DNA of 64,000 bases from an uncultured Actinomycetota bacterium (GCA_963747085.1 CAVVDX010000001.1:1804272-1868271); one strand, 5' to 3'. Shown: positions 7,128 to 61,358, numbered from the stretch's first letter. Translations and numbers: made by a program. Notes: a model not told the origin generated them from the letters alone.

Positions 7128-8086
7128 CTATCCTGCTCGGCGGAACTCCTCGTAGCGCTCCTCGAACCGCTCCGGGTCCGGTCGGGCCGTGCGAGGCTCG
7201 GGGCCGGATCAGCTGGACCCCGGCCATCTCCTGCAGTCCGTGGAGCGGCATCGGTCCGTCGATCTGGGCGTGGACGTCGGAGCGCACCTCCACCACCAGG
7301 TCGGCCGCACGCCAAGTGGATTCTCGTCGTAAGCAGCGTGGTGCATCTTGCACAGCGACAGCCCGTTGGGAACGATCGGTGCGCCCCTCGGGTGCCCGTC
7401 GGGGAGGATGTGGGCGGCGTCGAGCAGCGACGAGTACCGCAGTCGGCACATGGCGCACTGGTTCGCGTAGGCGGTCAACACTCCGATACGGAAGACCGGC
7501 TGGTGCAGCCGCTGGCGGGTCAGCCGTTCGATGTAAGGCGCTGCGTCTCGTCACCGACATCGCCGACGGACACCAGGCGCTGCGCCACGTCGAAGGCGAC
7601 CACGAACTGGAGCTGAGCGGGCTCGTCGCCCACGATCCAGATCGGGTAGACGGGCACGTACGGCCCGCCGCGGCGGCCACGAACCACACCAGCGGCAGAC
7701 CGTGGTCGAACGCCTGCCGAGCGACGTTCTCGGGGTGGGAACGATCGATGCCTCGGTACTTGTAGCGGAGCAGCCCGTCCGGTCCCTCGGCATCCTCGTA
7801 GGGTGGGGCCTGGCCCGGGGGGGAAGCGGGTCCGGATGGACAGAGCCACCGTCATGTGGGCCGGCTTGCGGATGCCGCGCTGCGGGTCCATTAGTGGCAT
7901 CCGCCGGCCCTCGAAGCTGAACTCGGCCAGCTCGTCGAAGGATAGGACCTCGCGGCCGGTGGCGACCCGCTCGTCGAGCCATGCCATGGCGGCCACCCGC
8001 AGGCGATCCTCGTAGTCCCTGTCGATGACGGAATCGTACGACGCAGTGGGGCTCCAACCCCGGGAGCTTGGACCCACCAAGGCCAA
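7128..8086 (-). pseudogene. HNH endonuclease (HNH_2-type) with an N-terminal domain of unknown function; about 5 frame breaks
   Basis: HNH core: LTAYANQCAMCRLRYSSLLDAAHILPDGHPRGAPIVPNGLSLCKMHHAAYDEN (ORF 7209-7481). The N-terminal region, reassembled across frames, reads ..LSFDELAEFSFEGRRMPLMDPQRGIRKP..PPGQAPPYEDAEGPDGLLRYKYRGIDRSHPENVARQAFDHGLPLVWF..YVPVYPIWIVGDEPAQLQFVVA. The tail ..RPDLVVEVRSDVHAQIDGPM..LHGLQEMAGVQLIRPEPRTARPDPERFEERYEEFRRAG ends at TAG 7128-7130. The breaks coincide with G/C runs, for example G7 at 7817-7823. Confidence 0.7.
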
Positions 8087-9284: not shown

Positions 9285-9724
9285 CGGACTCCTCCCCCGC
9301 ATTGCCGGGTCCCGCAGGGTCGAGCGAGGTGATTCTGCAACGGATGAGGACGACCAGGCGACGGGACACAAAACCCGAGTTGCTGCTGCGCTCGGAATTG
9401 GACCGCCGAGGCATGCGGTACGCGGTCGATCAGCCCGTGGATGGCACCCGGGGGCGAGCCCACATCGTCTTCAAAGGTGCCCGGGTCGCGGTCTATGTCG
9501 ACGGCTGTTATTGGCATGGCTGCCGTCCACGGCACGATGCCCAAGAGCAACGGCCAGTGGTGGAAGGAAAGCTCGACACCAACCGCTCACGGGACGCCGA
9601 CACCGATGCGAGGCTCACCGAGGCCGGTTGGACCGTGTTGCGGTTCTGGGAACACGATGATCCGGTCGAGTCGGCCGCCAAGGTGGTCGCCGTAGTCCGA
9701 GGGGAGATCGCCGGGCGTCGCTGA
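9281..9724 (+). pseudogene. vsr: Very-short-patch (T:G mismatch) repair endonuclease Vsr; two frame breaks
   Basis: MTDSS..RMRTTRRRDTKPELLLRSELDRRGMRYAVD..RAHIVFKGARVAVYVDGCYWHGC is followed in an alternate frame by ..HGTMPKSNGQWWKE. It then returns to KLDTNRSRDADTDARLTEAGWTVLRFWEH. ATG 9281 overlaps the proposed dcm stop (ATGA), like the dcm-vsr overlap in E. coli. Confidence 0.8.
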
Positions 9725-12164: not shown

Positions 12165-15100
12165 CCGATCAGCTCAGTTCTGCCCACTGCACCACCTTCG
12201 TCTCGTGGATGCTCGACGGTGTCGTCGCCGAGGCGCGGGGTGACCGCATGCAGTTCCTGCCCGTCGCCCCCAAGGGTCGCTTCTGGCTGGGCCGGCTCGC
12301 CCCGGAGATCGTGGTCCAGAACAGCCGACTGGGGGAGCGAAGCGAACGGTTGGAGCCGTGCGAGGTCGGTATACGGGTTCGCCCCTCGGCCATCGATGGC
12401 CGCTCGGTCTCGTGCTCGGCTCAGTTCGTCGTCTGGAGCGAGTTCGACGGCGGCGATCAGCCGGACGCCGACAAGTGGCGCAAGAGCGAGCCCATCGAGG
12501 TGACCGCGACATTGCCGATCCCGAACGCCATCGCCCAGGTAACGTCCGCCGGCCGCGATGCCTTCGAGCGGGCGCTCGCCGGCAACGGGGCTGTTGGCAT
12601 GAGCTGTGAGTTCCACGCCGAACTTGAGTTCGGCAAGGACGGCCCCGAACTCGTCGTCACGCTGGTCAACATCTCGCCCGAGGAACTCGACGGCTGGGAC
12701 ACCAACCTCTACGAGGCGTCGATGACCGCCGATGTCGGCGCGACCGAGCCCTTCACCCTGGACAACCTCCCCGATTCGTTCCGGTACGAGCGGACGGTCC
12801 CGGCCTACGGCGTCAACGGCGGCGTCGAGCTGGTCTCGTCCACCGTCTTCCAGACCACCGACGTCGCCGTCCGCGATCAACCGCGGCCGGACTATTGGGA
12901 CCACGAGGCCGGCACGGCGCCGGACATCACCTTCGCGGCCCTGGCAGACGACCCGATGCCGAGCCTGCGGAACCTCGTCACCCTGGCAGCGCAGTGGGGT
13001 GACCACCACTGGTCCGATCAGGTGCTCGCCGGCCGGGCCGACCACGAGCACTGGGACGAGGGCATGCGCCAGCTTGCCGCAGAGGAGGCAGCCGCCTTCT
13101 TCGACGAGCTGGCCCGGCTCCAGCAGGGGGTCACGCTGCTCGACGGCGACGAGGGGCTGCGACGCGCCTTCCGGTTCGCCAACCGGGCCTTCGCAACGTC
13201 ACCCGCCGTGCCCCATGGGGGCTGGCGAGCGTTCCAACTCGGCTTCGTGCTCGCCAATGTCGCCTCCATCGCCGACGATTCGCCGCACGGCCCCCGCGAG
13301 GTCGTCGACACGCTCTGGTTCGCCACGGGCGGCGGCAAGACCGAGACCTACCTCCTCTACGTGGTGACGGCTGCGTTCTTCGACCGTCTCCGTGGCAAGC
13401 GCGAGGGGATCACGTCCTGGGGCCGCTTCCCGCTGCGGATGCTGTCGCTTCAGCAGACGCAACGCTTCGCCGACGTGCTCGCTGCCGCCGAACTCGTGCG
13501 CCGCGACGAACAGATCGACGGCCAGCCCTTCTCGCTCGGCTTCTTCGTGGGCAACAACGGGACTCCCAACAAGATCCCCACTGCCCGCGATCACCGGCCG
13601 GGTCAGCCCGACCCCAACGACGCCGAGATGCCTGGCCGCTACCAGGTCCTGCTCCGCTGCCCCTTCTGTACCTCTTCGTCGCTCGAGATGCGCTTCGATC
13701 AGCAGCGCTGGGCCCTCGACCACGTCTGCACCGCCGCAGACTGCCCGTGGGGAGGCCGGCCGTTGCTCATCCGCGTCGTCGACGAGGAGATCTACCGCTC
13801 GCTGCCGACGGTCGTCCTCGGCACGCTCGACAAGGCGGCGAGCATCTCGATGCAGGCGGCGATGCGCGGCTTCTATGGGCCACCGGCCGGACGCTGCCCC
13901 CAGCAGGGGCACGGCTACACCTACGCGCCGAGGAGCAAGTCCCCGTCCGGATGCCTCTTCCCGGGCTGCTCGGCGCAACCCGGCCCGCTTCGTCAGGACG
14001 CCGCGATGTTCGCCCCCACCATCCGGATGCAGGACGAGCTGCACCTCCTCCGCGACAGCCTGGGGGCGGTCGATGCCCACTACGAGGCCCTGCTCGACGC
14101 GCTCCAGACCCATTACGGCTCGACCCCGAAGATCATCGCCTCTTCGGCCACCCTCGCCGGTCACGACGAGCAGGTGGCTGCGCTCTACCGCCGCGAGGGA
14201 CGAACCTTTCCCCGTCCTGGCCCGCGGGTCGGTCACTCGTTCTGGTCCCGCGACACGGAGAAGCTCGCCCGGCGGTTCGCGGGCGTCGCACCGCGTGGCG
14301 TGACGCTGGAGTACGCCACCGACCAGCTCACCGAGGCGCTCCAACGCGTGACGCGGCGAGCGATCGACGAGCCTGCTGCCGTCGCCGCCGAGACCGGCCT
14401 GGCGACCGACCTCTTCCCCGCTCTCGTGTCGATCTACGGCGTCGATGTGGTCTACGGCTCGACGCTCAAGGACGTCGAGGCGGTGGCACGTTCCTTCGAC
14501 ACCCAGATCCAGCTCTCCCGCCCGGTCAACGCCGCGACGCTCACCGGCCGGACGCCGCTCGACGAGGTCCGCGCCACGCTGGCCCGTCTCACGCACCCCG
14601 AGGCCGACTTCTACGACCGGATCCATCTCGTGGCGGCGTCGTCGATGCTCTCCCACGGCGTCGACATCAATCGGCTCAACGTCATGGTCATGCTCGGGCT
14701 GCCGCTCGCCACCGCCGAGTTCATCCAGACGACCTCACGAGTCGGACGCACCCACCCCGGTCTCGTTATCGTCCTCCACAAGATCGGCCGCGAGCGCGAC
14801 GCCGCCGTCTACCGCACCTTCCCGTCATTCGTTGCCCATGCAGATCGCCTGATCGATCCCGTGCCGGTGACGGCCAAGAGCCGTCGGGTGCTGGAGCTGA
14901 CCTTCGCTGGACTCGTCCAGGCCCGCCTCTTCGGGATCCATGAACCTGCGGCGATCGCCGCCAACCTCAGACAGCTCACTCTCCCGGCCGCGGTGCGACG
15001 GGCCTTCGCCCGCCTCCCCGTGCTGGAGCCGGCGGAACTGGCGGCACTGGTCGCGATGCTCGCCTTCACGGGGCCACTCGACGAGAACCTGAGACAGGAT

Positions 15101-15256
15101 CTCCAGACCTACCTGCGCGAGTTTTTCCGTGCCCTCAACGACCCGGCCAGCAGCGCCCATTGGGTCGACGATCTCTTCCCTACGGGCAAGCCGATGCTGT
15201 CCCTGCGGGACGTCGAGGAACAGGCTCCGGTCTACTCAAGGGGCGGTCGGTCGTGA
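12161..15256 (+). CDS. drmA: DrmA-like SF2 helicase (DISARM core), intact
   Basis: Uninterrupted ORF (12113-15256; likely GTG start at 12161). Walker A: LWFATGGGKTETY (13322-13345). Motif II: IRMQDELHLL (DELH at 14033-14044). Also IIASSATLAGH, and motifs V-VI VAASSMLSHGVDINRLNVMVMLGLP..AEFIQTTSRVGR. A CPFC...C..DCPWG zinc-knuckle insert is present. Confidence 0.8.
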   Translation: MTDQLSSAHCTTFVSWMLDGVVAEARGDRMQFLPVAPKGRFWLGRLAPEIVVQNSRLGERSERLEPCEVGIRVRPSAIDGRSVSCSAQFVVWSEFDGGDQPDADKWRKSEPIEVTATLPIPNAIAQVTSAGRDAFERALAGNGAVGMSCEFHAELEFGKDGPELVVTLVNISPEELDGWDTNLYEASMTADVGATEPFTLDNLPDSFRYERTVPAYGVNGGVELVSSTVFQTTDVAVRDQPRPDYWDHEAGTAPDITFAALADDPMPSLRNLVTLAAQWGDHHWSDQVLAGRADHEHWDEGMRQLAAEEAAAFFDELARLQQGVTLLDGDEGLRRAFRFANRAFATSPAVPHGGWRAFQLGFVLANVASIADDSPHGPREVVDTLWFATGGGKTETYLLYVVTAAFFDRLRGKREGITSWGRFPLRMLSLQQTQRFADVLAAAELVRRDEQIDGQPFSLGFFVGNNGTPNKIPTARDHRPGQPDPNDAEMPGRYQVLLRCPFCTSSSLEMRFDQQRWALDHVCTAADCPWGGRPLLIRVVDEEIYRSLPTVVLGTLDKAASISMQAAMRGFYGPPAGRCPQQGHGYTYAPRSKSPSGCLFPGCSAQPGPLRQDAAMFAPTIRMQDELHLLRDSLGAVDAHYEALLDALQTHYGSTPKIIASSATLAGHDEQVAALYRREGRTFPRPGPRVGHSFWSRDTEKLARRFAGVAPRGVTLEYATDQLTEALQRVTRRAIDEPAAVAAETGLATDLFPALVSIYGVDVVYGSTLKDVEAVARSFDTQIQLSRPVNAATLTGRTPLDEVRATLARLTHPEADFYDRIHLVAASSMLSHGVDINRLNVMVMLGLPLATAEFIQTTSRVGRTHPGLVIVLHKIGRERDAAVYRTFPSFVAHADRLIDPVPVTAKSRRVLELTFAGLVQARLFGIHEPAAIAANLRQLTLPAAVRRAFARLPVLEPAELAALVAMLAFTGPLDENLRQDLQTYLREFFRALNDPASSAHWVDDLFPTGKPMLSLRDVEEQAPVYSRGGRS

Positions 15257-16949: not shown

Positions 16950-17688
16950 GTGCACGACGCCGAACTGGTCGGCGGCGTCCTTTACGCCGCCCCCGATCCG
17001 TGGAGCACTGCACACGATCTCGCGGGGCTCCTCGCCGCGCCTCGGACCGATCGCCGGCAGGCGTCCGGCCTCGGTCTCGATCCCGACCTCGTCGACGTGC
17101 TGCGTGCTCACTTCGGCGGTGATCGCCCGCGGATCGACACTGCCTGCGACCTCGGGGCGGCGTGGGTCCTCGGGCGCCGTTCGGTCGTGAGCGCTGAGCC
17201 GTGGGACCTCGTCGCCTCGCTGCCGGCGAATACGCCGCTGCCGACGCGGCCTGACCCGCACGACCGCCGAGACCCTGGTGCAGCTCGTGACCCAGTCGAC
17301 GACGTCACTTCGGTTGGCGGCACCGTTCATCGACCTGCCGGGCATCTCGCACCTGGCCGACGGCCTCGCGGCGGCGACGGCCCGAGGCGTCCACCTCGAG
17401 ATCCTGCTGCCCACCCGCTCGACCCATGCTGGGGGAGCGCTCCACGAACTGCGCGCCACGATCGCCAGGGACGGCAACAGCGCCAACCTGTCGGTCGCGG
17501 CAATCCGCGAGGACGCTCCGTGGGCGCACTTGAAAGCGCTCACGTCGGACTCGCGGGCCGCCTACATCGGCAGCGCCAACGTCACCGGCGCCGGTCTGGC
17601 AGGCCTGAACCTTGAGCTGGGCATCCTCGTCCGTGGGCCGGCGGTTGCCGTCGTCGAGCGGGTGCTGGACCTGTTCCGCGAACGCTGA
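16950..17688 (+). pseudogene. drmC: DrmC-like PLD-family nuclease (DISARM); one frame break
   Basis: GTG 16950 lies 2 nt after the drmB stop. The break is at ~17247. The downstream frame (ORF 17278-17688) holds a single HKD motif, HLKALTSDSRAAYIGSAN (17527-17580). Confidence 0.75.
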
Positions 17689-22637: not shown

Positions 22638-23797
22638 CTAATCCGCCGAGCGAGACAGCGTCAACGTGCGGCCGAGGCTCGCGGCCAACTCCCAGTCGCG
22701 CTGCTCGACGGCGTGGGAGTACACACGGAGCGTGACGGAAGGGTCGGCGTGGCCGAGCCGAGCGCCCACGGTCACGGCATCGAAGCCGGCGGCGATTGCC
22801 TGGGTCGCGGAGAAGTGCCGGAGCGCGTGGAGGTGGGTGTCCACGCCGGCCCGCTTGGCGACCCTGATCGTGAACTTCGTGAGGACGTCGAGCCGCATCG
22901 GTTCGAGCCCGGCTGGCGAGCGCTAGAACATGAAGGCATGCGGCGCCACGGCCACCCCGAGGTCGCGGGCCAGGGTGTCGATCTGTCGCGGTGGCGTCGG
23001 AGAATCTCAACGCCAAGGTCGTCCAGGCCCACCTTGCGCGCTGCGTGGGTTTTTGTCGCCTTCTCGCCCCACCCACCACCGGGCGTCTCGTAGATCGAGC
23101 GGGCGACGCGGAGCGTGCGAGCCTCGGCGTCGAAGTCTGACCATCGCAGCGCACACAGCTCGCCCCGCCGGGCTCCTGTGAGGGCGGCCAGCGAGAGCAG
23201 CGCTGCGAAGGCCGGCTCGATCGCCTCGGCGACTTCGATGATGGCGCGCACCTGCTCGGGGTCAGGAGCCTCGACCTGCGAGGCGTGCACAGGTGGCGGC
23301 GTGGCCCGCTTGCTGACGTTGCGGTCGATCAGGCCCCACTTCTCGGCCTGGTGGAGCGCGACGCCGATCAGGGCGTGGACGTGGCGGACGGTCATCGGCT
23401 TCAGGCCGCGGGCGACGAGCCGGGCGTACAGGCGGTCGAGGTCGACAGCAGTCAACCGGGCGAGCCGGACGCCGCCGAGTTCCGGGCGAAGGATGGTGTC
23501 AGCGATGCGGCGGTACTCCCGGAGCGTCGTCGGCGAGCGGCCGATCGACTCGGCGTGCTCCAGGAAGCGGTCGAGCAGATGGCCGACTGTCTCGGTACCG
23601 GTCGCCGTGTTGCCCTTAGCGACCTCGGCGACCATCCGGGCCAGCTGCCGGTCGGCCTCCCGTACGCCCGAGCCCGGCCGGCCATCGCCCGTGCGCACGG
23701 TCTCGCTGCGCTGGATGGGCTGGCCCTTGGCGTTGCGGCCCAGGTAGACCCGCAGGCGCCACACACCCGCGCTGACTTCGTCCTTCGTTCCCTGCAT
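22638..23797 (-). pseudogene. int: Tyrosine-type site-specific integrase; one frame break plus an in-frame TAG
   Basis: MQGTKDEVSAGVWRLRVYLG..TLREYRRIADTILRPELGGVRLARLTAVDLDRLYARL..ALLSLAALTGARRGELCALRWSDFD.. reads to a break at ~22985. It continues ..QIDTLARDLGVAVAPHAFMF, hits TAG at 22923-22925, and then reads RSPAGLEPMRLDVLTKFTIRVAKRAGVDTHLHALRHFSATQAIAAGFDAVTVGARLGHADPSVTLRVYSH (R..HxxR..Y catalytic residues). Confidence 0.85.
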
Positions 23798-23874
23798 GCC
23801 GCCATTGTAGTCCGGAAGTAGTCCGACAACTGAGGCGACGTGCGAGCAGCGAGACGAAGCAGCGCTCACACCTG

Positions 23875-23959
23875 CGGAGGGAGGGGGATTCGAACCCCCG
23901 GTCCCTCGCGGGACAACGGTTTTCAAGACCGTCGCAATCGTCCGCTCTGCCATCCCTCC
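23875..23959 (-). tRNA. tRNA-Ser (anticodon UGA)
   Basis: The minus strand reads GGAGGGATGGCAGAGCGGACGATTGCGACGGTCTTGAAAACCGTTGTCCCGCGAGGGACCGGGGGTTCGAATCCCCCTCCCTCCG. It has a 7-bp acceptor stem, the anticodon loop CTTGAAA, a long variable arm and a GGGGG/TTCGAAT/CCCCC T-arm. Confidence 0.9.
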
Positions 23960-50698: not shown

Positions 50699-51955
50699 TC
50701 AGCTGATCGTATTGAGCAACGACACCGTGACCGTCAGCGCGCTGGGCGCCAGCGGCAGGAAGTTGAACTGGGCCAGGTACTTGTTCGACGCCCCGTCGTT
50801 GGGGTCCGCACCCCAGGCGAGGAGCGCCTTGATGTCGTCCGCCGTCGAGGAGCTCGTCTGGTTCTGCAGCACGATCGCGTACTCGAAGTTGGCAATCGGG
50901 TACCCGTACTTGGCGGAGTGCGAGTAGATGAGCGACACCGTTCCCGGCCGGATGTTGTCCGAGTTGCCGATGCCGGGGATGTGCTGGTAGCTCGCCACCT
51001 CGTTGCCGATCGTCGTCCGGTTCAGGTTCATGTAGTTGCCCGAGGCGTTCTCGAGCGCGGCGTCACCGAGCCCGTGCGACAGCGCCGAGCGCAAGTAGCT
51101 CACGCCGATGTAGGCGATGCAGCCCTTGATGCTGATGCACGCTTGCAGCATCCCGGAGTTACCGGTCTCGGCCTGCTCGCCCGACACGGTCGGGAAGTTC
51201 GTCGAGGAGGTGTTCGGGCCGCCCATGTTGGCCTGCACGAACCCACCGTTGGTCGCCCCGTAGTCGATGTACGAGGTGAACAGGAAGGTGTCGCCGCTGC
51301 CGTCGGCGCGTTCGCAACGGCACGATGGTCAGGTTGGGCAGCTTGATTCCCTTGTTGATCGACGTGATTTCCGAGTTGTCCCAGTTGGTGACCTTGCCGG
51401 AGTAGATGTCGTTCAGCACGTTGGCGTTCAGCTTGACGTGGGTCGAGGACGATAGGCCCGGGATGTCGTAGTCGATCTGCTGGGCCGAGACGACGATCGG
51501 GATGTTCAGCACGTTGGACGGGATGCTCTGCGGCAGGTAGGCGTCCGAGGCGCCGATGTTGATCGTCCCGGCTTCAGCCTGCGCCTGCCCCGTGCCCGAA
51601 CCGGTCCCGGCCGGGCTGATGCTGAGACCGAGCGGCTTGACTCCGGACCATGCGACGAACAGCGGGTAGAACAGTGTCGAGCCGGTCTCCGAGACAGTGT
51701 CGCCGGAGTGGGCCAGCTTCTGGAACTTGGCGAGCTGGGACTCGAGGGTGCTCAGGCTGCTGGTGGACGACGAGCCGCCTTTGCTCTTGCTCTTCTGCGC
51801 CTTGACGTGGGTCGACGCGCTGGCGAGCGGCGCAAGCACCGCTGCGGTCGCCAACGAGCCGGCGACGACGGCGGCCCCAGCGATGGCGAGGCGACGACGG
51901 GCTCGGCTGGGCCGCGCTGCGCCGCGGTCCCTCCGTGAATCGGGCTCATCTGCAT
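50699..51955 (-). CDS. pstS: Phosphate ABC transporter substrate-binding protein PstS; two frame breaks (~51900, ~51300)
   Basis: GAAAGGAG precedes ATG 51955 (MQMSPIHGG..). The signal ..RRRLAIAGAAVVAGSLATAAVLAPLASA is in a shifted frame. Reads ..GSTLFYPLFVAWS..SPAGTGSGTGQAQAEAGTINIGASDAYL.. (ORF 51159-51854), then ..RADGSGDTFLFTSYI..CIAYIGVSYL..YPIANFEYAIV.. (ORF 50699-51238). Confidence 0.8.
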
Positions 51956-52952: not shown

Positions 52953-53034
52953 ATCCGCGGCAACCTAACCCAGGTAGCTGAACGGAAGGCAAACAGACGA
53001 TGTCGCCTCGATGACGCGACAGTAAAAGGTTCCC

Positions 53035-53077
53035 GCCGGGATGCCGGGCATGCAGCCTTCTCGCCCGGCATCCGGGC
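53035..53077. promoter_or_regulatory. 14/15-bp inverted repeat (GCCGGGATGCCGGGC-N13-GCCCGGCATCCGGGC) in the pstB/phoU divergent intergenic region
   Basis: The arms at 53035-53049 and 53063-53077 are reverse complements with one mismatch. An unusually A/T-rich stretch (52955-53030) lies just upstream. Confidence 0.35.
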
Positions 53078-53170
53078 TAGGGTCGCTGCATCGCCGACTT
53101 CATCCGGAACTCGCATCCTGACACGCTGCAGGCCGGTTCCGCCAGCCCGGCCGCTACGGGCCGCGGCGCG

Positions 53171-53944
53171 GTGGACGGCTCGGGCGAGAACGGCACCTTC
53201 GCGGCGCGTTCGGGTGCGAACGCCGGCATCAGCGCGGCGAGGCCGGAGAACAGCGGGAAGGCGCTCGGGCAGAGCGAGGAGCTCGCCCAGATCGACAAGC
53301 GCGTGATCCAGCTGTTCGCGCTCGTCGGCGAGGCGATCGCAGGCTCGACGGCCGTGCTGCTCACGGGCGACCGGGTCGAAGCACGCGAGCTCGTGCAGCG
53401 CGATGCCGAGATCGACGCCCGCTACCGCGAGCTCGACGCCGCCGTGTTGCGGCTGCTGGCCGAAGGCCGAGACGTCGACGACATGGTGCATCTTGTCGCT
53501 GTGCTGCGCATCCTGCCCGAGGTCGAGCGCAGCGGCGACCTCGCCGAGCACGTCGCGCGCCGCGCCAGCCGCGGCATCACGACCGAGATGACGGCGCGGG
53601 CGCGCGGCCTGTTGGAGCGGATGGGCGATGTCGCCTGCGCGATGTGGCGGATGGCTGCGGATGCGTACGGGGACCGTTGCGACGTCGCCGACGATCTCGA
53701 CGCGCTCGACGACGAGCTCGACGAGCTGCACGTGAGCCTTACCGCCGAGCTCGTCGGCGGGACGATGACGATCCCGGTCGTGATCGAGCTCGTGCTGATC
53801 GCCCGTTTCTACGAACGCCTCGGCGACCACGCCGTCAACATCGCCCGGCGCGTCCCGCACCGCCGGCACTCGCCGCCGGCGGCGGCGGTCGAGCCCGTCG
53901 CCGGCTCGCTCGCCCCGGCACCGACGACGACCCGGCTCGCCTGA
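53171..53944 (+). CDS. phoU: Phosphate signalling regulator PhoU (start uncertain)
   Basis: Two PhoU repeats: ..QRDAEIDARYRELDAAVLRLLA..VAVLRILPEVERSGDLAEHVA.. and ..DALDDELDELHVSL..VIELVLIARFYERLGDHAVNIARR. Confidence 0.85.
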   Translation: MDGSGENGTFAARSGANAGISAARPENSGKALGQSEELAQIDKRVIQLFALVGEAIAGSTAVLLTGDRVEARELVQRDAEIDARYRELDAAVLRLLAEGRDVDDMVHLVAVLRILPEVERSGDLAEHVARRASRGITTEMTARARGLLERMGDVACAMWRMAADAYGDRCDVADDLDALDDELDELHVSLTAELVGGTMTIPVVIELVLIARFYERLGDHAVNIARRVPHRRHSPPAAAVEPVAGSLAPAPTTTRLA

Positions 53945-53946
53945 GG

Positions 53947-54369
53947 GTGCTCGCGCCGCTGCCGCCTGCCACGGCGAGGCTGCTCGCCGCGGCCGTCGCT
54001 GCCTCGCGGTGCGGACTCGGCCTGGTCGCCTTCGTCGTGCCGACGGTGCCGGCGGTCCCCTGGGTCGGTTCGGCCGAGGCCGGCCGGCGCGGGGCGCGCC
54101 TGTTCGCCCGGACGCTCGGGGGACGCGACCTCGCGCTCGGCGCGGGCCTGCTCCGCGCTCTGCTGCGCGACGAGCCGCTGGGCGGCTGGGTCGGCGCAGG
54201 CGCGCTCGCCGACGGCGGCGACCTGCTGGCGACGCTGTGGGCCTTCGACGAGCTGCCGCGCCGCTCGCGCTGGCTGATCGTCGCCATCACCGCTGGCGCG
54301 GCGTTGGCCGGTCTGGCGTGCCTGCCGTCGCTTCGGAGCTCTGCCTCCCCGGCCGGAGCCGGCAGCTAA
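53947..54369 (+). CDS. Small hypothetical membrane protein (DUF4267-like by recall)
   Basis: GTG 53947 follows the phoU stop. Reads ..LGLVAFVVPTVPAVPWVG..RTLGGRDLALGAGLL..DLLATLWAF..WLIVAITAGAALAGLACL. Confidence 0.4.
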   Translation: MLAPLPPATARLLAAAVAASRCGLGLVAFVVPTVPAVPWVGSAEAGRRGARLFARTLGGRDLALGAGLLRALLRDEPLGGWVGAGALADGGDLLATLWAFDELPRRSRWLIVAITAGAALAGLACLPSLRSSASPAGAGS

Positions 54370-54405
54370 GCCGGCGGAGCGGCGACTAAGCCGGCGGAGC
54401 GGCGA
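54366..54405 (+). repeat. Perfect 20-bp tandem duplication (ctaagccggcggagcggcga x2) at a convergent gene junction
   Basis: Copy 1 (54366-85) holds the TAA stop of the + gene at 54367-69. Copy 2 (54386-405) holds the TAG stop of the minus-strand ATPase at 54386-88. Confidence 0.9.
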
Positions 54406-55687
54406 CGGGTGCCGCGGGACCGGCGGGTGCGATCACCGACTCCGCCGCGGACCCTCCCGTGATCGCGCCGTCGGTGTCGACGATCGCCCGCTCCGCTTCG
54501 GAGAGGCGGTGCTCGACGAGGAACGACCGTCCGGCGACACGCCACAACGCGGTCGCCCTCGGCAGCCGGCCCAGCAGCGCCCCCTGCTCGGCGTCGAGCC
54601 CGAGCACCGCCGCGGCCGTGTCGACCTCGGACGCCGCCAGCCCGTAGCAGACCACGGTCTCGGAGTCGGCGAGCAGGCCCTCGGCGAGACGCGCCGTGAC
54701 GCTGCCCGCCGCGCCGGCGGCGGCGAGGTCGGAGACGCGGTGCAGCACGGCGACGTTGGCGACCCCCCGGGCGCGGGCCAACTTCCATGACGACTGCAAG
54801 AAACGTGCCACCCCGGCGTCGGCGAGCACCGCCCATGCCTCGTCGACGACGAGCACGGTGCGCGATCCTGCCGGCGGGAGGTTGTCGAGGAAGGCGACAG
54901 CGCAGGCGATCACGGCGCCGAGCGCTGCCGAGCGGTACACCGCCGCGATGTCGAGCACGAGGGCGGGGCCGCGAAGCTCGATCCCCGGCGTCGTCGGGCC
55001 GTCGAACATCCCGCGCAGCTCGCCGTGCACCAGCCGCCGCAGCTCGAGCGCAACGTCACGCGACGAGGCCTGCAGGATGCCTCCACCGAGGCCGAGCTCG
55101 TCCGCCCGTCGAGCGTCGGGCGCGAGCAGCGCCTCGACGACACGGCCGAGCAGCGGTTCGCCGCCGTCGCTCGCCACCTCGAGGGCGAGCTCGAGCGCGG
55201 TGTGCTCGACGGGGGTGAGCGGGCGACCGAGGCAGGAGGTGGCGAGCGCGGCCAGCAACCCGAGCCGGCGTCGCGCCAGCTCGTCGGGCGGCGCGGCTCG
55301 CAGTCCGGGGGCTCCGGGAGCGGCGAGGGGATTGAGACGCTGCCCGCCACCCGGGCGCAACGCGACGGGGCGGGCGCCGAGCGCAGCGGCGAGCGGGCCG
55401 TACTCGCCTTTCGGGTCGAGCACGACGATGCGGCGCCCGAACGCCGCCTGGCGGAAGAGATAGCTCTTCACGAGCGCGCTCTTGCCGCGGCCGATCTGGC
55501 CGAGCACGAGCATGTTCGGGTTGGTCAGAACGCCGGCGGCGTACAGCTCGAAGGGGTCGTGGACGAAGAGCCCGCCGAGCAGGTCGCGGCCCACGACCAC
55601 ACCGCGGCCGGGGAGCGTGGCGCTCGCCCCGAAGGGATGGGCGGCGGCGAGCTGGGCGGTCGTCGCCTCGTGCGTCGGCAGCCTCAC
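54386..55687 (-). CDS. VirB4/TraC-like ATPase (C-terminal ATPase domain only)
   Basis: GTG 55687 overlaps the upstream stop (GTGA). Walker A: MLVLGQIGRGKSALVK. Walker B: VLVVDEAWAVL. Also ..ARARGVANVAVLHRVSDL.. and ..LPRATALWRVAGRSFLVEHRLS. Confidence 0.7.
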   Translation of the reverse strand: MRLPTHEATTAQLAAAHPFGASATLPGRGVVVGRDLLGGLFVHDPFELYAAGVLTNPNMLVLGQIGRGKSALVKSYLFRQAAFGRRIVVLDPKGEYGPLAAALGARPVALRPGGGQRLNPLAAPGAPGLRAAPPDELARRRLGLLAALATSCLGRPLTPVEHTALELALEVASDGGEPLLGRVVEALLAPDARRADELGLGGGILQASSRDVALELRRLVHGELRGMFDGPTTPGIELRGPALVLDIAAVYRSAALGAVIACAVAFLDNLPPAGSRTVLVVDEAWAVLADAGVARFLQSSWKLARARGVANVAVLHRVSDLAAAGAAGSVTARLAEGLLADSETVVCYGLAASEVDTAAAVLGLDAEQGALLGRLPRATALWRVAGRSFLVEHRLSEAERAIVDTDGAITGGSAAESVIAPAGPAAPVAAPPA

Positions 55688-57129
55688 CGGCAGCCCCGGC
55701 CCGCCGGCAGGGTGCAGCAGAACGCCTCGGCCTGCGAGCCGTACAGCCGGCGCAGCTCGAGGCGGGCGAGCGCGGCTGCCTGCTCCAGCGTCCGGCAGGC
55801 CCGCTCGAGCTCGGCGCGCCCCTCGGCGGTCACGGTCACGTAGCCGGAGAAACGGTACGCGGCATGTCCGGCGGCGAGCTCCTCCTCGCGCCGCTCGACC
55901 GCACGGCGCTCCTGGTCCAGGCGGGCCGTGACGGCGAAACCGTGCCGCCGGCGCAGCTCGAGATCGGCGACCTTCTCGGTGCGGGCGTGCTCGGTGAGGC
56001 GCAACGCGCGCTGCGGCGGTCGCGGCGCCATCACCACCGCGACCGCCCGTCGCGTCCACGAGCCCAGCAAGAGGGGGAGGAGGAAGTCGTCGCCGACCGC
56101 GCTGCGCGGCCACTCGGCGATCCAGTAACAGGCATGCCAGGTGGCGTCGGTTCGCAGGCAGCTCCATTCCTCCGCCACGCCGAGCGGCCACGGCCAGCTC
56201 CCGGCCCCACCGCTCGCGGTCGCGGTCGCGGTCGCGGCCGCGGCCGCGGCCGCGGCCGCGGTGCAGCCCGCCACGAGGCCGTCGACCTCGGTCGGCGACA
56301 GCGCACGCGCTGTGGCGAAGCCGGCGGCGCGGCACCGCCCGAGGAGCCGCTCCACCTCGCCCGCCGGGCCCGAACGCTCGCCCGCGCCAGGGCCTGCCGG
56401 CTCGCTGCGGGGCGCGCCCCCGCGCCACGCGAGCGAGCACGCGAGGAGCAGCTCATGGCGAAGGAGCCCGCAGCGCTCTGCTGCGAGCAGCCTCTCGTAC
56501 GAGCGCGCCGCCGAGGATGGCGCGCCGGGGGCGTGGTGGCCGAGGCCCGTGGCGGCGTCGGGGACGGTTCGCTCGATCCAGGCGAGCCGCTCGATGGCAC
56601 CGGCGTGACCGGCGAGCGACGCCAAGAGCCCGGACCACGAGGCGACGCGGCGGGCGCGTTCGGGGCCGCCGAGCAGCGCAAAGCCCTCGGCGGGCAGGCA
56701 CACCACCGCCGTCACCCGCCCGTGGCGGCGGTCACGGATCCCTCCGGCCGGCTTTCCCTCGACCCGGCCGAGGTCGATCACGTCGAGCTGGGCGAAGGCA
56801 CCCCGCCGCGGCCCGCACGGGACCGGGGGGAGCTGGGCTCGACCCGGTCGCGAGCGAGCCGCGAGGAAGCCGAGCACGCATGGCGCCCACTCGTCGAGCG
56901 TGCGCCCGGCGACGGGCACGAACCCCGCGGCGAGACCAGCTGCGAGCGCAACGAGAGCGACACCTGCTCCCGCCTCCCGCCCCAGCGAGCGCAGCGCGCC
57001 AAGAGCGACCAGCAATCCGCCGGCCGCCGGGACGAGCTGACCGGCGCGCAGACCGGCGACGAGGCCGCGCCGGTCTCGCGGCCCGAAGCGGTACGGGCGG
57101 GGTGATGCGCCCCTCGTCTCGTCGTCCAT
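55684..57129 (-). CDS. SCO6880/PrgI-like membrane protein (VirB3 to VirB4-N-terminal analogue, by recall)
   Basis: MDDETRGASPRPYRFGPRDRRGLVAGLRAGQLVPAAGGLLVALGAL.. is a two-TM hairpin. A large soluble domain follows, ending ..GYVTVTAEGRAELERACRTLEQAAALARLELRRLYGSQAEAFCCTLPAG. Confidence 0.55.
   Translation of the reverse strand: MDDETRGASPRPYRFGPRDRRGLVAGLRAGQLVPAAGGLLVALGALRSLGREAGAGVALVALAAGLAAGFVPVAGRTLDEWAPCVLGFLAARSRPGRAQLPPVPCGPRRGAFAQLDVIDLGRVEGKPAGGIRDRRHGRVTAVVCLPAEGFALLGGPERARRVASWSGLLASLAGHAGAIERLAWIERTVPDAATGLGHHAPGAPSSAARSYERLLAAERCGLLRHELLLACSLAWRGGAPRSEPAGPGAGERSGPAGEVERLLGRCRAAGFATARALSPTEVDGLVAGCTAAAAAAAAATATATASGGAGSWPWPLGVAEEWSCLRTDATWHACYWIAEWPRSAVGDDFLLPLLLGSWTRRAVAVVMAPRPPQRALRLTEHARTEKVADLELRRRHGFAVTARLDQERRAVERREEELAAGHAAYRFSGYVTVTAEGRAELERACRTLEQAAALARLELRRLYGSQAEAFCCTLPAGRGCR
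56216..56263 (+). repeat. Hexanucleotide microsatellite (GCGGTC)x3(GCGGCC)x4 GCGGTG inside the SCO6880-like gene (encodes an A8(TA)3 tract on the minus strand)
   Basis: Read directly. It is in-frame because the unit length is 6. Confidence 0.85.
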
Positions 57130-57131
57130 GC

Positions 57132-58238
57132 TCAGCCTCCCTCCACGTGCTGGCCCTCCGCTGGCTGGTCGGCGGCCTCGCCACCACGCAACGACGCCAG
57201 CTCGGCCGTCGTGCCGGACGCGAAGGCGGCCGGGTCGAAGCTCGAAGCGGCGAAGCCGACCGACTCCACCCCCGAGGGTGCCGGCGACGGCAGGAGGTCG
57301 GCGACGTCCCAGGCCGCGCCCGCCTCTGGCAGCCCGGCAGCGATCGAGACGGCTGCTCGCGTGCCGGCGTGCCGGGCGCGTGCGGCGAGCCCCTCGAGCT
57401 GGGACACCGAGCCTGCTTCGACGACGGGTACGAGCCGCAACAGCGCAGCCGGCGCGAACGCCGCGAGCGCGAGCAGGGCGATGCCCTGCACGACCGCGGT
57501 CACCCCCGAGCCCGAGCCCAGCGTCGCCGCCGAGAGGGCGAGCACGCCGACGATCACCACCTTGGACATCACGAGGGCGGCGAGCGTCTCGGCGAGCCGG
57601 CGCGCCCAGTGCGCCGTCGCCGGCCACACCAGGCCGGCCAGCGCCAGGGGGACGAACAGTGTCGCTACCTCGATCGCCGCGGCGCGCACGACCAGCTCGA
57701 GCCAGACCAAGAACGCGACTGCTGCCGCGACGCCGGCGAGCATCACGAGGCCGAAGCCGGGCAGCAGCCCCTGCACACCTCCCGAGCCCACGAGGCCGTC
57801 GGCGAGCGAGCCGAACAGCCCGGCGACCGGGCCACGGGCCGACTCGAGCAGGAAGCCGCTCATCTGGTCGGTGGCAGATACGGCGAGACGGACGACGTCG
57901 AGCGCCGCTGCGCCGAGCAACACGGCAAGGGGGACGCGCACGAGCAGCGCGCTCACGACCTGGGACAGGTCGCGGCGCACGACGCCGTGCAGCATGGCCA
58001 ACAGGACCAGCGGCAGGGTGAGGGCGAGACCGATGGCGAGCGTGCGCGTCATCAGCGCGGCCAGCGGCGTGCCGAGGTCGGGGCCGCTCGTCTCGAGGAG
58101 CGCGTGGCCGAGGCGACCGACGAGTGAGGCGGCGCCATCGGCGACCCAGCTCGTCAAGTAGGAGAACAGCGCCCGGACGAGGGGGCCGACTGCGATGCCG
58201 ATGAGCCCCTGGGGAAGCGGGACGAAGCGCCCGCTCAT
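57132..58238 (-). CDS. Polytopic membrane protein (TrbL/VirB6-like)
   Basis: The 368-aa product has at least 6 hydrophobic segments (..LAIGLALTLPLVLLAML.., ..LLPGFGLVMLAGVAAAVAFLVWLELVV.., ..VVIVGVLALSAATLG..). It is coupled to its neighbours by an ATGA overlap at 58235-58238 and a 2-nt gap at 57130-31. Confidence 0.5.
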   Translation of the reverse strand: MSGRFVPLPQGLIGIAVGPLVRALFSYLTSWVADGAASLVGRLGHALLETSGPDLGTPLAALMTRTLAIGLALTLPLVLLAMLHGVVRRDLSQVVSALLVRVPLAVLLGAAALDVVRLAVSATDQMSGFLLESARGPVAGLFGSLADGLVGSGGVQGLLPGFGLVMLAGVAAAVAFLVWLELVVRAAAIEVATLFVPLALAGLVWPATAHWARRLAETLAALVMSKVVIVGVLALSAATLGSGSGVTAVVQGIALLALAAFAPAALLRLVPVVEAGSVSQLEGLAARARHAGTRAAVSIAAGLPEAGAAWDVADLLPSPAPSGVESVGFAASSFDPAAFASGTTAELASLRGGEAADQPAEGQHVEGG

Positions 58239-58691
58239 CGCGCCCCCTGTCCGGTGGAGAACATGAAGTTGAGCACCGTCGGAGCGGCTCCGATCAGCAG
58301 CGCGGCGATCGCCGAGACGAGGACGGCGCGTCGCCCGGTGACGGTGTGCTGGTAGTTGTTCGAGTGCGCTCCGAGCGCCCAGGTCGCCGCGCCGACGATC
58401 AACCCGACGAGCGAGGCGATGAGCGCCCAGGCAGCGAGCCCGTTGGTCAGCTGGTGCAGGGTGTCGCCTCCCGGGAGCGCCGAGGTGCTCGGCTGCAGGC
58501 TGAGCGCGCCGCCCCCAGTCGCTCCGGTCCCGGTTGCGCCGCGCAGGCGGCCCTGCGCCAGGCCTGGTCCCACGCCGCGGGCACCTCCACCGCGCACTTC
58601 CGGGACGGCAGCGGCAGAACGGGCCGCGGCGACGCGGGCGAGCACGACGTCACGCGCCCGGGTCGACAGACGCGAACAGGGAAGCAGTCAT
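58235..58691 (-). CDS. Small two-TM protein (VirB2/pilin-like; DUF6112-like by recall); possible frame break near ~58650
   Basis: ..LHQLTNGLAAWALIASLVGLIVGAATWALGAHSNNYQHTVTGRRAVLVSAIAALLIGAAPTVLNFMF. ATG 58691 has a strong GAGGAGG RBS but reads only 13 codons before a stop. The main ORF (GTG 58645) is offset by one frame. Confidence 0.5.
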
Positions 58692-58898
58692 GGGACCTCC
58701 TCGCCCACGGGCGCGGCGCCAGGCGAGCCCTCTCGAGGGCCGGCGCAGCGACGTCGCCCGCGCAGCACGTGCGCGAACGGGAGGCTGCGGCCCGAAGGCG
58801 CGGCAGCGATTCGCCGGCGCACCCTAGGAGGCACTAGCAGCCTGCTCAACGAACAGGAGGGCTCACCAGCCGACCTCCCTTCGCGCCGCGGAGCGAAA

Positions 58899-59017
58899 GG
58901 CGCGGGCAGGACGGGGCGCGGGCAAGACCGGGGCGGGCAGGACGGGCGCGGGGCAAGACGGGCGCGGGCAAGACGGGCGCGGGGCAAGACGGGGCGGGCA
59001 GAGCCGGGGCAGGACCC
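58899..59017 (+). repeat. G-rich imperfect tandem array (about 8 units of 15-16 nt, consensus GGGCGCGGGCAAGAC) in a divergent intergenic region
   Basis: ggcgcgggcaggac / ggggcgcgggcaagac / cggggcgggcaggac / gggcgcggggcaagac / gggcgcgggcaagac / gggcgcggggcaagac / ggggcgggcagagcc / ggggcaggac. The hairpin CCCGGGCGG-ccagaa-CCGCCCCGG follows at 59015-59039. Confidence 0.85.
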
Positions 59018-59152
59018 GGGCGGCCAGAACCGCCCCGGGTGAGGCGCGGACGACAGCGACCGACCCAACCTCGACGATGCCGCCGACAACAAGGCGGTAC
59101 CGGCGGCCACGGCACTACCATGCTGGAGCGTGCCTGCGGACCTGCTCGCGAC

Positions 59153-60406
59153 ATGACGGCATCGATCCAGCTGTCCGCCATCGCCCTCGTTGCCTGCGTT
59201 GCGGTCGTCGTCGTCCTGGTGGCGGCGGTCGCGATCGCGGCCGACCGGCGCGGGCAGCGGTCGGTGCGGCAGCGCCTGCTCGCCCTCGGCAGTCGGCTCG
59301 GTGCCGAGCACCTGGAGCGAGAGCCGGCGAGCGTCGAGGAGGCCCTCGAGTACGTCGAGCGTGCGACCGACCAAGCAGCCGAGACGGTCACCGAGTCCAG
59401 CGCCGACGCGATCCGCCTGCGGCGCGCCCTCGACACGCTCCCCCAGGCCGTCGTCGTCTGCGACGAGCACGGTGGCGCCGTGTTCCGCAACGCCCGGGCG
59501 ATCGTGCTCATGGGCAACCGCCACAGCGACGCGCTCGCCGCCCAGGCGGTGGACGAGCTCCTCGCGGCGACGAAGCCCGGATCCTCCGAGGAGCGCACGC
59601 TCGAGCTGTACGGGCCACCGCGGCGGACGCTGGTCGTGCGCACCCAGAGCATCGACAACGGCCAGCGCGCCCTCGGGGTGATCGCCGTGATCGACGACGT
59701 GTCGGAACGCCGGCGGCTCGAGGAGGTGCGCCGCGACTTCGTCGCCAACGTCAGCCACGAGCTGAAGACGCCGATGGGCGCGATCGGGCTGCTCGCCGAG
59801 ACGCTGCTCGAGGAGACCGAGCCCGAGGTCGAGCGCCGGCTCGCCCAGCGCATCCACACCGAGGCGTTCCGCATCAGCCGGATCATCGACGACCTGCTCG
59901 ACCTGTCGCGCATCGAGAGCGAGGAGTCTCCGCCGCGCGAGCCCGTGCTCGTCAACCTCGTCATCGCCGAGGCGGCTGAGCGCGTGCGGGCGGCTGCCGA
60001 GCAGCACTCGGTCGAGCTCGAGGTGGACGAGCCGTCGCCGCCGGTCGCCGTGCTCGGCGACCGGCGCCAGCTCACCTCCGCCGTCTACAACCTGCTGGAG
60101 AACGCCGTGAAGTTCTCCTACGAGGGAGGCCGTGTGCACTGCATGGGCATCACGAAGGACGACGAAGTGATCATCTCGGTGAGCGACCACGGCATCGGGA
60201 TCCCGACGAGGGACCTCGAACGGATCTTCGAACGCTTCTACCGGGTCGACCACGGGCGCAGCCGCCAGACGGGGGGCACGGGACTCGGCCTGGCGATCGT
60301 CCGTCACGTTGCGCAGAACCACCACGGCAGCGTGCACGTCGAGTCGCGCGAGGGCGAGGGGGCGACCTTCACCCTTCGCCTGCCGCTGCACGGACGAGCG
60401 GAATGA
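59153..60406 (+). CDS. senX3: Sensor histidine kinase (SenX3-like)
   Basis: N-terminal TM: IQLSAIALVACVAVVVVLVAAVAIAA. A PAS-like region follows. H-box: FVANVSHELKTPMGAI. N-box: LLENAVKFS. G-boxes: DHGIGIP and GGTGLGLAIVRHV. The ATG at 59120 is an alternative start. Confidence 0.8.
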   Translation: MTASIQLSAIALVACVAVVVVLVAAVAIAADRRGQRSVRQRLLALGSRLGAEHLEREPASVEEALEYVERATDQAAETVTESSADAIRLRRALDTLPQAVVVCDEHGGAVFRNARAIVLMGNRHSDALAAQAVDELLAATKPGSSEERTLELYGPPRRTLVVRTQSIDNGQRALGVIAVIDDVSERRRLEEVRRDFVANVSHELKTPMGAIGLLAETLLEETEPEVERRLAQRIHTEAFRISRIIDDLLDLSRIESEESPPREPVLVNLVIAEAAERVRAAAEQHSVELEVDEPSPPVAVLGDRRQLTSAVYNLLENAVKFSYEGGRVHCMGITKDDEVIISVSDHGIGIPTRDLERIFERFYRVDHGRSRQTGGTGLGLAIVRHVAQNHHGSVHVESREGEGATFTLRLPLHGRAE

Positions 60407-60467: not shown

Positions 60468-61358
60468 GTGAGCACGGCGGCGGATCCGGACGAGGTGGTG
60501 CGCAACGGCGAGGGCACCCATCGCCCGGCGCCGCGAGCGCGCACCCATCCGGCGCGCCCGACCGCGTCGTCGGACAGCTCGGAGCGTCTTGGCGGCGACC
60601 GGCGCATCGAGGTGCTGCTCGCCGAGGACGAGGAGTCCTTCGTCGACGCTCTCGTGATCAGCCTCGAGCGTGAGGGCTTCCATGTCACCGTGGCGCGCGA
60701 CGGCGCGGAGGCGATGGCTCGCTTCGAGGAGCGGACCCCCGACCTCGTGCTCCTCGACGTGATGCTGCCCCGGATGTCCGGCCTCGACGTCTGCCGGGCG
60801 ATCCGGGCCCGCTCGTCGGTCCCGATCATCATGGTCACGGCGAAGTCCACCGAGATCGACACCGTCGTCGGCCTGGAGATCGGGGCCGACGACTACGTCG
60901 CCAAGCCGTATCGCCTGCGGGAGCTGATCTCGCGCATGCGGGCGGTGTTGCGCCGTTCCCCCTCGGCCGGCGGCACGAGCGCCGAGGGCGACCCCCCGGG
61001 TAGTCGGCCCATCGCGGAGGCGGCCGACGACGCCGACGGCGAGGGCACGACCGCCCTCGAGGTCGGGGGCGTCCGCCTCGACCCCGAGCGCCACGAATGC
61101 GTCGTGCGAGGCGACGAGGTGCAGTTGCCGCTCAAGGAATTCGAGCTGCTCGAGCAGCTGCTCTCGAGCGCCGGACGCGTCGTCACACGGGACACCCTGA
61201 TCGATCGCGTGTGGGGCACCGACTACGTCGGCGACACGAAGACCCTGGACGTGCACATCAAGCGGCTGCGCTCGCGCATCGAGGTCGACCCATCCAACCC
61301 GCAGCTGATCACCACGATCCGCGGGCTCGGTTACCGCTTCGAGACGCCTCGTCGCTGA
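60468..61358 (+). CDS. regX3: OmpR-family response regulator (RegX3-like), start uncertain
   Basis: ..VLLAEDEESFVDAL..DLVLLDVMLPRMSGLDVCR..PIIMVTAKS..GADDYVAKPY.. is followed by the winged helix ..LPLKEFELLEQLL..VVTRDTLIDRVWG..TKTLDVHIKRLRSRIE..IRGLGYRF. An unusual ~25-aa insert sits between the two domains. Confidence 0.8.
   Translation: MSTAADPDEVVRNGEGTHRPAPRARTHPARPTASSDSSERLGGDRRIEVLLAEDEESFVDALVISLEREGFHVTVARDGAEAMARFEERTPDLVLLDVMLPRMSGLDVCRAIRARSSVPIIMVTAKSTEIDTVVGLEIGADDYVAKPYRLRELISRMRAVLRRSPSAGGTSAEGDPPGSRPIAEAADDADGEGTTALEVGGVRLDPERHECVVRGDEVQLPLKEFELLEQLLSSAGRVVTRDTLIDRVWGTDYVGDTKTLDVHIKRLRSRIEVDPSNPQLITTIRGLGYRFETPRR

Follow-up and report, generated by a model that had tools for sequence, protein, structure and literature searches.

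A four-gene operon between phoU and senX3-regX3

The 64,000-nucleotide stretch of DNA investigated here (hereafter the window) belongs to an uncultured Actinomycetota bacterium (GCA_963747085.1, CAVVDX010000001.1:1804272-1868271) and carries on its minus strand four genes derived from a type IV secretion system (T4SS), named D, C, B and A in the order of transcription. Gene D (58235..58573; longest open reading frame, ORF, to 58645) encodes a small DUF6112 protein of 112 aa with two transmembrane segments, gene C (57132..58238) a polytopic membrane protein of 368 aa resembling SCO6881 and CmdD, gene B (55684..57129) an SCO6880-family protein of 481 aa in which a two-transmembrane hairpin is followed by a predicted VirB4 N-domain, and gene A (54386..55687) a protein of 433 aa that corresponds to the C-terminal RecA-like ATPase domain of VirB4 as a separate polypeptide. 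Hidden Markov model (HMM) searches with Pfam and NCBIfam gave family matches for all four, intact and at the place where an earlier interpretation made without database searches (the sequence-only reading) had put them. The junctions are also as it described, with an ATGA overlap between D and C, a 2-nt gap between C and B (TGA-GC-ATG) and a GTGA overlap between B and A. Since these stop and start codons overlap or abut, the four genes form a translationally coupled operon.

Pfam searches of the flanks confirmed that the module lies between phoU and senX3-regX3. One side carries phoU (53171..53944, plus strand; Pfam PhoU, 94.6 bits) and pstB-pstS-pstC-pstA; the other carries the senX3-like histidine kinase gene (59120 or 59153 to 60406, plus strand; Pfam PAS, HisKA and HATPase_c), the regX3-like gene for an OmpR-type response regulator (60468-61358, plus strand; Pfam Response_reg and Trans_reg_C), ctaA and clpS. 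The senX3-regX3 pair is divergent from the operon, and the region between senX3 and gene D (58574..59119) is the presumed site of the operon promoter. On the phoU side, a small hydrophobic protein of 139 aa without a Pfam match is encoded convergently with the operon (53950..54369, plus strand), a 16-bp gap (54370..54385) separating its stop codon from that of gene A.

Gene D belongs to the DUF6112 family (Pfam PF19607; 38.9 bits, above the cut-off of 25, over profile positions 4-86 of 88). Its product has two hydrophobic segments and is 83% identical to the orthologue in L090, the corresponding locus of a close relative (L numbers designate such loci throughout). DUF6112 orthologues are 99-102 aa long and start ~10-25 residues before a conserved L(S/T)PD/QPS..LPG stretch; a start at GTG 58573, preceded by a GGAGG 10 nt upstream, fits these lengths. 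A possible frame break had been suspected at the start of this pilin-like gene. The 13-codon ORF opened by the ATG at 58691 (58650-58691) lies in another frame than DUF6112 and is not conserved in L090, and the orthologues are themselves short, which rules out a frameshift. We regard gene D as a candidate pilin- or VirB2/VirB3-like small subunit. The region between senX3 and gene D also contains a 15-16-bp tandem repeat, GGCGCGGGCAAGACG, in ~6.7 copies (58899-59000), which is lineage-specific and absent from the closest relative, L090. A conserved k-mer search of this region recovered a -35-like word, TTGAAACA, that recurs in many relatives and is absent from the window; another conserved k-mer was merely the senX3 start codon.

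Gene C contains ~6 hydrophobic segments, so that its polytopic character stands as first proposed, while its TrbL/VirB6 likeness appears in profile matches that stay below the curated cut-offs: 35.2 bits (E 7e-9) with SCO6881_fam, whose cut-off is 325, and 18 bits with TrbL_4, whose cut-off is 27. In an alignment of 33 sequences of the gene C family (A3), 29 match SCO6881_fam and 7 match TrbL_4. Note that A3 includes a Streptomyces plasmid homologue, the probable source of the best SCO6881_fam match (E 4.5e-185). Gene C is likely a distant homologue of the SCO6881 family, and its topology, the gene order and the weak profile matches suggest that it is probably the VirB6/TrbL equivalent. Profile searches of the Protein Data Bank (PDB) with the B and C families gave no match.

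Genes B and A and the VirB4 fold

The product of gene B is a member of the SCO6880 family (NCBIfam SCO6880_fam, NF042935; 229.5 bits where the cut-off is 60, covering positions 3-476 of 477). In its AlphaFold2 model (pLDDT 84, pTM 0.84), an N-terminal helical hairpin made of the two hydrophobic segments precedes a large alpha/beta body. The 14 best PDB fold matches are all to TrwK, the VirB4 of the R388 T4SS (E 1e-8 to 2e-6, ~390-400 aligned columns), and the next match comes at E 0.065. The SCO6880 half of the label SCO6880/PrgI-like, under which B was first described, is therefore kept; a merely PrgI/VirB3-like protein is not what the model predicts, which is a VirB4 N-domain with a two-transmembrane hairpin. 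A weak NCBIfam match places residues 323-478 of B on positions 202-363 of a 752-position VirB4 model, and gene A falls on positions 413-711 of the same model.

Gene A carries AAA_10, TraG P-loop and DUF87 domains and covers the C-terminal halves only of VirB4 models (~410-710), scoring at best 58 bits against a cut-off of 590; a VirB4 made of a single polypeptide (~750-900 aa, as in the TIGR00929, TraC, TrbE and CD1110 equivalogs) is not encoded here. The Walker A motif GRGKS (within GQIGRGKS) and the Walker B motif VVDEAW are present as previously read, with residues invariant in 32 orthologues (alignment A1). For the AlphaFold2 model of A (pLDDT 81.5), the best fold match is the Thermoanaerobacter VirB4 C-terminal domain (4AG6/4AG5, E 4e-17 to 1.5e-15, TM-score 0.71-0.73), followed by TrwK (1e-11) and then by the coupling protein TrwB (4e-10) and HerA, an order that upholds the earlier assignment of this ATPase to the VirB4 type rather than to the coupling proteins.

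An exhaustive HMMER search recovered fused SCO6880 and ATPase homologues of 863-942 aa from other Actinomycetota metagenome-assembled genomes (MAGs), with the ATPase in the C-terminal half (among them P0370, P0405 and P0453). In the fused 867- and 932-aa clusters, several full-length sequences are found, each on a contig of its own. Two fused proteins (867 and 932 aa) align through their N-terminal halves over the whole of B, with E-values of 2e-21 and 6e-22, and the C-terminal halves of the fused homologues match A. As judged from these alignments, both split and unsplit forms of VirB4 exist within the family. Because of the fold matches to TrwK and 4AG5/4AG6 and of the fused homologues, we interpret B and A as a VirB4 split between its N- and C-terminal domains and encoded by two genes. 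The SCO6880 family would then be the VirB4 N-domain, bearing a membrane hairpin presumably at the place where VirB3 binds or is fused elsewhere.

Within the literature collection searched, "SCO6880" gave Xie et al. 2009 (PMC2782261) as the sole match, and the word "split" does not occur in a 2025 T4SS nomenclature review. Gene B also shows sub-threshold similarity to the type VII secretion system protein EccE (TIGR03923, E 2e-6 over the N-terminal hairpin; Pfam EccE, 21 bits), and many of its orthologues have precomputed EccE matches, a hint that the families of EccE and of the SCO6880/VirB4 N-domain may be related.

Distribution of the locus and absence of the coupling protein gene

We scanned one genome per GTDB species with the ATPase alignment as query. 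Among the 578 relatives that matched, the best 80 loci were analysed, with synteny established by tblastn of the window proteins. All 80 come from Acidimicrobiales-type MAGs and hold the same locus in the same place. In the common arrangement, clpS-ctaA-...-regX3-senX3 run one way and the genes for DUF6112, the polytopic protein, SCO6880 and the ATPase the other, followed by phoU and often pstB; in 54 of 56 loci, senX3 lies next to gene D and diverges from it. Identity to the window correlates with that of SenX3 for A, B and C (Spearman 0.63, 0.72 and 0.60, respectively), as it does between SenX3 and RegX3 (0.65). Named homologues are nearly all from Acidimicrobiales or Acidimicrobiaceae MAGs, and plasmid homologues, including those of two Iamia (Acidimicrobiales) plasmids, reach 37-42% identity versus 55-78% for chromosomal ones. 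The host DNA, that of a member of the Acidimicrobiales, is very GC-rich (72-77%), and the locus (GC 0.75-0.78, third-codon-position GC, GC3, 0.90-0.91) shows no compositional break relative to its flanks (0.71-0.76). Shared synteny, co-divergence with SenX3, the distance of the plasmid copies and the even composition together indicate a fixed chromosomal system that is vertically inherited across the Acidimicrobiales. The module is thus not the orphan it was first taken for: the synteny check among the best 80 loci makes it one copy of an order-wide locus. We found no published description of this locus in Acidimicrobiia in our literature searches.

The loci of one Acidimicrobiaceae subclade have unrelated genes, spanning 1.3-5 kb, between the SCO6880-like gene and the ATPase gene with the type IV coupling protein (T4CP) gene that is paired with it, all parts being kept (L022, L024, L025, L027, L034, L035, L039, L047, L048, L054, L060, L075, L080 and L081). 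The inserts were considered as hidden T4SS parts and rejected; they encode a sulfatase/NUDIX fusion, DUF1275 and a UbiE-type methyltransferase, all unrelated.

The exact four-gene set is not the conserved state. A T4CP gene directly follows the ATPase gene, often overlapping its stop codon, in all 72 of the more distant relatives with at least 2 kb of downstream sequence. Its product (480-635 aa; T4SS-DNA_transf, TrwB_AAD_bind and TraG-D_C domains) is of the VirD4/TraG type. By tblastn, the 64-kb window contains no T4CP, and the 16-bp junction after gene A gave no significant match to a T4CP remnant. The three closest relatives on record lack the gene as well: L093 (77% ATPase identity), L089/L090 (73%) and L091 (73%), the window being collinear with L090 across the T4CP-less junction, while the next relative, L087 (70%), has it. 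ATPase identity among members of this T4CP-less clade is 72-81%. Because the closest relatives share the T4CP-less junction and L087 carries the gene, the four-gene state is derived, through a single loss of the T4CP in the ancestor of a small clade.

Two further observations concern neighbouring genes. The small hydrophobic protein recurs in relatives (137-148 aa, without a Pfam family; 6885-7298 in L090 and 11085-11531 in L087) and in several of them lies between the T4CP or ATPase gene and phoU, convergent with the operon; L091 is without it, and phoU abuts the ATPase gene there. The pstS gene of the window (50699-51839) is interrupted near 51313, where residues 35-214 and 215-418 of the L089 PstS lie in different frames; relatives have a single PstS of 401-419 aa, and the break reflects a frameshift or pseudogene, or else an error of sequencing.

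The pairing of a T4CP with a VirB4 locus, by which a conjugative T4SS or ICE (integrative and conjugative element) is recognised, is thus lacking within the window. Also as previously noted, neither relaxase nor wall hydrolase was found there. The search for relaxase domains covered the Pfam-scanned ORFs, a part of those chosen by a codon-composition filter; in three relatives with precomputed Pfam annotation, none of the genes called up to 8-10 kb from the locus carries a relaxase or hydrolase domain. The four genes alone occupy the interval between senX3 and the convergent small ORF, and their neighbours are free of SLT, CHAP, NlpC and NTF2 domains. VirB8-like and VirB1-like components, typical of monoderm T4SSs (MPF_FATA/FA), were not found in the cluster.

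These absences bear on the possibility that the module still serves conjugation or effector delivery, with T4CP, relaxase and wall hydrolase acting in trans from elsewhere in the genome. The relatives outside the small clade all keep a bona fide T4CP, which implies that the ancestral machine recruits a substrate; the 64 kb inspected belong to a contig of at least 2.77 Mb; and in some systems T4CP genes lie away from virB4 (PMC12102498). Against this, apart from the absence of a T4CP from the window, the contig of the module (2,770,597 bp) holds none of the 120 proteins that best match the L087 T4CP as orthologues, a weak negative, relaxase and hydrolase domains are missing around the locus in the three relatives, the locus follows the host phylogeny instead of moving, and deletion of the related cmd genes of Streptomyces left plasmid transfer unchanged (PMC2782261). 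We consider action in trans unlikely.

We then compared substitution rates by the Nei-Gojobori method. The four genes are intact in the window and in L090, as are the genes visible in the partial loci L091 (C, B and A, partial) and L093 (B and A, partial). Between the window and L090, the ratio of non-synonymous to synonymous substitution rates (dN/dS) is 0.17 for D, 0.41 for C, 0.35 for B and 0.30 for A, alongside 0.10 for senX3, 0.26 for regX3, 0.35 for phoU and 0.43 for the small ORF. Pairs within the T4CP-less clade give 0.25-0.39 for A and 0.34-0.48 for B, and for T4CP-bearing pairs of similar divergence the medians are 0.23 (interquartile range 0.20-0.28) and 0.39 (0.31-0.45), respectively; the two sets are only roughly comparable, as the T4CP-less clade, very rich in GC3, has a lower dS. 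Any relaxation in this clade is slight at most, and part of it may be due to that low dS. On these ratios, purifying selection is seen to keep the four genes after the loss of the T4CP.

The selection bears on a further explanation, close to the stable remainder of an old ICE entertained by the sequence-only reading, in which the module is a non-functional relic of an ancient ICE in slow decay since the T4CP was lost. One component has indeed gone, and unrelated genes break the operon in another subclade. Such a relic is very improbable given that the visible ORFs are intact in four diverged T4CP-less members with their catalytic motifs kept, that dN/dS is well below 1 and similar to that of T4CP-bearing lineages and of neighbouring housekeeping genes, that both halves of the operon are still kept in the split subclade, and that the locus bears no integrase, repeat or compositional break. 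More generally, none of the marks of a mobile element (relaxase, integrase, attachment sites, a break in GC or synteny) was found at the locus. The idea of a domesticated module was right; it sits among housekeeping genes.

The sole integrase of the window is part of another feature, a defence island at a distance of 30 kb. Positions 1-23959 form a lower-GC (62-70%) segment ending at this tyrosine recombinase (22772-23797, minus strand) beside tRNA-Ser(tga) (23874-23959), with DISARM-like genes (DrmA, 12161-15256, 341 bits; a DrmE-like ORF, 11244-12164; a DrmC/PLD ORF, 17278-17688), a Vsr endonuclease gene (9197-9724) and a type II restriction enzyme; it looks like an integrated defence island, and conjugation genes were not seen in it. 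The minus-strand ORFs 5093-6613 and 6454-7296 overlap and correspond to successive parts of one type II restriction-enzyme model (PDLC03419), which suggests a frameshifted or split gene.

Comparison with known systems and proposed role

The nearest characterised counterpart is the cmdABCDEF cluster of Streptomyces coelicolor (SCO4126-4131), six co-transcribed chromosomal genes in which CmdB, a VirB4-like ATPase associated with the membrane, depends for its function on conserved lysines, CmdC resembles SCO6880 and CmdD resembles SCO6881 (PMC2782261). The sequence-only reading had not drawn this link. Besides leaving plasmid transfer intact, cmd mutants show aberrant branching, defective septation, 6-8% anucleate spores and actinorhodin overproduction; a mutant of cmdA, which adjoins the ATPase gene, has no phenotype, so that this gene is dispensable (PMC2782261). 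A genome-wide screen recovered cmdBCDEF, the adjacent lytic transglycosylase gene tgdA (SCO4132) and SCO5677 (Xu et al. 2019, PMC6585502), and pstSCAB (SCO4139-4142) lies eight locus tags from the cmd cluster (PMC11543844). The locus described here shares with cmd a VirB4-like ATPase, an SCO6880-like and an SCO6881-like protein, encoded co-directionally on the chromosome in the order A-B-C, and both clusters are near pst. The dispensability of cmdA has a parallel in the window clade, where the gene that follows the ATPase gene, that of the T4CP, was lost. This likeness relies on published family equivalences (PMC2782261), and we assume no equivalence between CmdA and the T4CP or between CmdE and DUF6112. 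The clusters differ in that cmd comprises six genes together with tgdA, whereas four are found here and five in relatives, with no hydrolase. They also differ in that the cmd phenotypes concern aerial hyphae and spores. To our knowledge, no sporulating development of that kind occurs in Acidimicrobiales. The common pst neighbourhood suggests by analogy that cmd and the Acidimicrobiales locus may share a deep ancestry.

The same families in the same order (DUF6112, T4SS membrane protein, SCO6880-family protein, ATP-binding protein, with a T4CP nearby) are found in actinobacterial conjugative plasmid and ICE sets, namely SLP2.19-23, the SCO6871-6884 type, the S. angustmyceticus p1 locus L086, where genes for a C40 peptidase and DUF6238 are found among other additions, and the Iamia plasmids. 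Those sets lie on mobile replicons and are at most 42% identical, whereas the locus of the window stays in one place, keeps its synteny and diverges along with its host. The R388 Trw system (VirB3-VirB4-VirB6-VirB8-VirB10 and VirD4; PDB 7O3x/8RTx) offers the structural parallel: B and A together would give the VirB4 fold, the two-transmembrane hairpin of B presumably lies where VirB3 would bind or be fused, and C is polytopic like VirB6. Here, in contrast, VirB4 is split, equivalents of VirB8, VirB10 and VirB11, a hydrolase and a relaxase are missing, and this lineage is without VirD4. The MPF_FATA-like T4SS of Patescibacteria (PMC12102498) is likewise lineage-wide, chromosomal, of monoderm type, without an associated relaxase and thought to be co-opted for a non-conjugative role; it belongs to another phylum and has VirB2-like pilins, usually a T4CP and other FATA components, which makes it an analogue in logic only.

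The phosphate-regulon neighbourhood raises the possibility of a DNA-uptake T4SS, perhaps taking up DNA as a nutrient. The ComB system of Helicobacter consists of VirB2/3/4/6-like parts without a coupling protein, and a gene set lacking T4CP and relaxase resembles its logic; moreover, pst-phoU and the phosphate-sensing senX3-regX3 pair flank the locus in nearly all relatives. The absence of the T4CP is the sole feature shared with ComB-type systems, and most relatives carry the T4CP that such systems lack. Neither ComEC, DprA nor other competence genes were seen near the locus, and we know of no uptake system based on a monoderm T4SS. To look at phosphate control, we defined a local PHO box from the upstream regions of pstB, consisting of (G/T)TCA(C/T) direct repeats with an 11-nt period. 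Pairs of such units are strongly enriched upstream of pstB in relatives (18 observed versus 0.05 expected; arrays in L005, L006, L010, L011, L013, L015, L019, L029, L038, L042, L087 and L090), and are essentially absent from 58 senX3/gene D intergenic regions (1 observed versus 0.43 expected). In the window itself, the first unit upstream of pstB (52953-53170) is degenerate and the strict pattern is unmatched. With PHO-box repeats before pstB and not before the operon, its control by Pho (RegX3), suggested by its position, is unsupported, and DNA uptake is quite improbable.

With moderate confidence, we favour an explanation in which a T4SS-derived machine of the Cmd kind, ancient, vertically inherited and fixed in the chromosome, is represented in the window by a local copy that lost its T4CP, kept the other four genes and would have a non-conjugative role. 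The ancestral form would have comprised five genes between senX3-regX3 and phoU (DUF6112, SCO6881/VirB6-like, SCO6880, ATPase and a VirD4/TraG T4CP), the last of which would have been excised without trace in the window lineage while the other four were retained. B would anchor in the membrane by its hairpin and bind A, and the two would rebuild a VirB4-like motor docked on the polytopic C, with A hydrolysing ATP to drive a substrate's extraction, assembly or passage through C. For this substrate, the simplest candidate would be the small D subunit or an envelope component, as canonical recruitment of DNA or protein substrates would be impossible without a T4CP. Classical T4SSs require VirB4, and not the coupling protein, for extracting pilin and assembling the pilus. 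This requirement, together with the cmd phenotypes, makes it more plausible that the T4CP-less machine builds or maintains a surface or envelope structure than that it transfers DNA. Its role would be one of housekeeping rather than of mobile-element transfer and, by analogy with cmd, may touch envelope growth, division or chromosome partition.

Several points weigh against this explanation. The mechanism is drawn from homology and the function in Acidimicrobiales is predicted; the pilin-like role of D is argued from topology and the VirB6 assignment of C from weak profile matches. A VirB8-like or VirB1-like partner, which known monoderm T4SSs normally have, was not found. The analysis covers 64 kb of the genome, so that a T4CP, relaxase or wall hydrolase may be encoded elsewhere, and the check for a relocated T4CP covers the best 120 database matches. 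The likeness to cmd is taken from published descriptions, orthology to those genes rather than to the paralogous SCO6871-6884 type being putative, and the dN/dS comparison carries the reservation given above. More tentatively, and with some doubt, Cmd and the locus of the Acidimicrobiia, a class distant from Streptomyces, might represent one T4SS-derived housekeeping machine, phylum-deep in Actinomycetota and powered by a split VirB4 motor, of which the T4CP-less clade would keep a selectable function independent of the T4CP.

The assignment of SCO6880 to the missing N-terminal half of VirB4 would account for a widespread "family of unknown function", and recognition of a split VirB4 would correct the detection of T4SSs in actinobacterial genomes, where the ATPase alone scores far under the cut-offs of VirB4 models. 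T4SSs are nearly always treated as machines of mobile elements or virulence, and the cmd genes of Streptomyces have been an unexplained exception since 2009. A module fixed at one site across an order of Acidimicrobiia would imply a conserved cellular role tied neither to spores nor to plasmids. The T4CP-less clade separates the activity of the VirB4/VirB6 core from that of the coupling protein and so offers a comparative handle on the machine. If the explanation is true, this clade is a natural experiment in which a core of VirB4, VirB6 and a small subunit is selectable without any coupling protein, and its activity would lie in assembling a surface structure, remodelling the envelope or handling DNA at division, and not in transferring a substrate.

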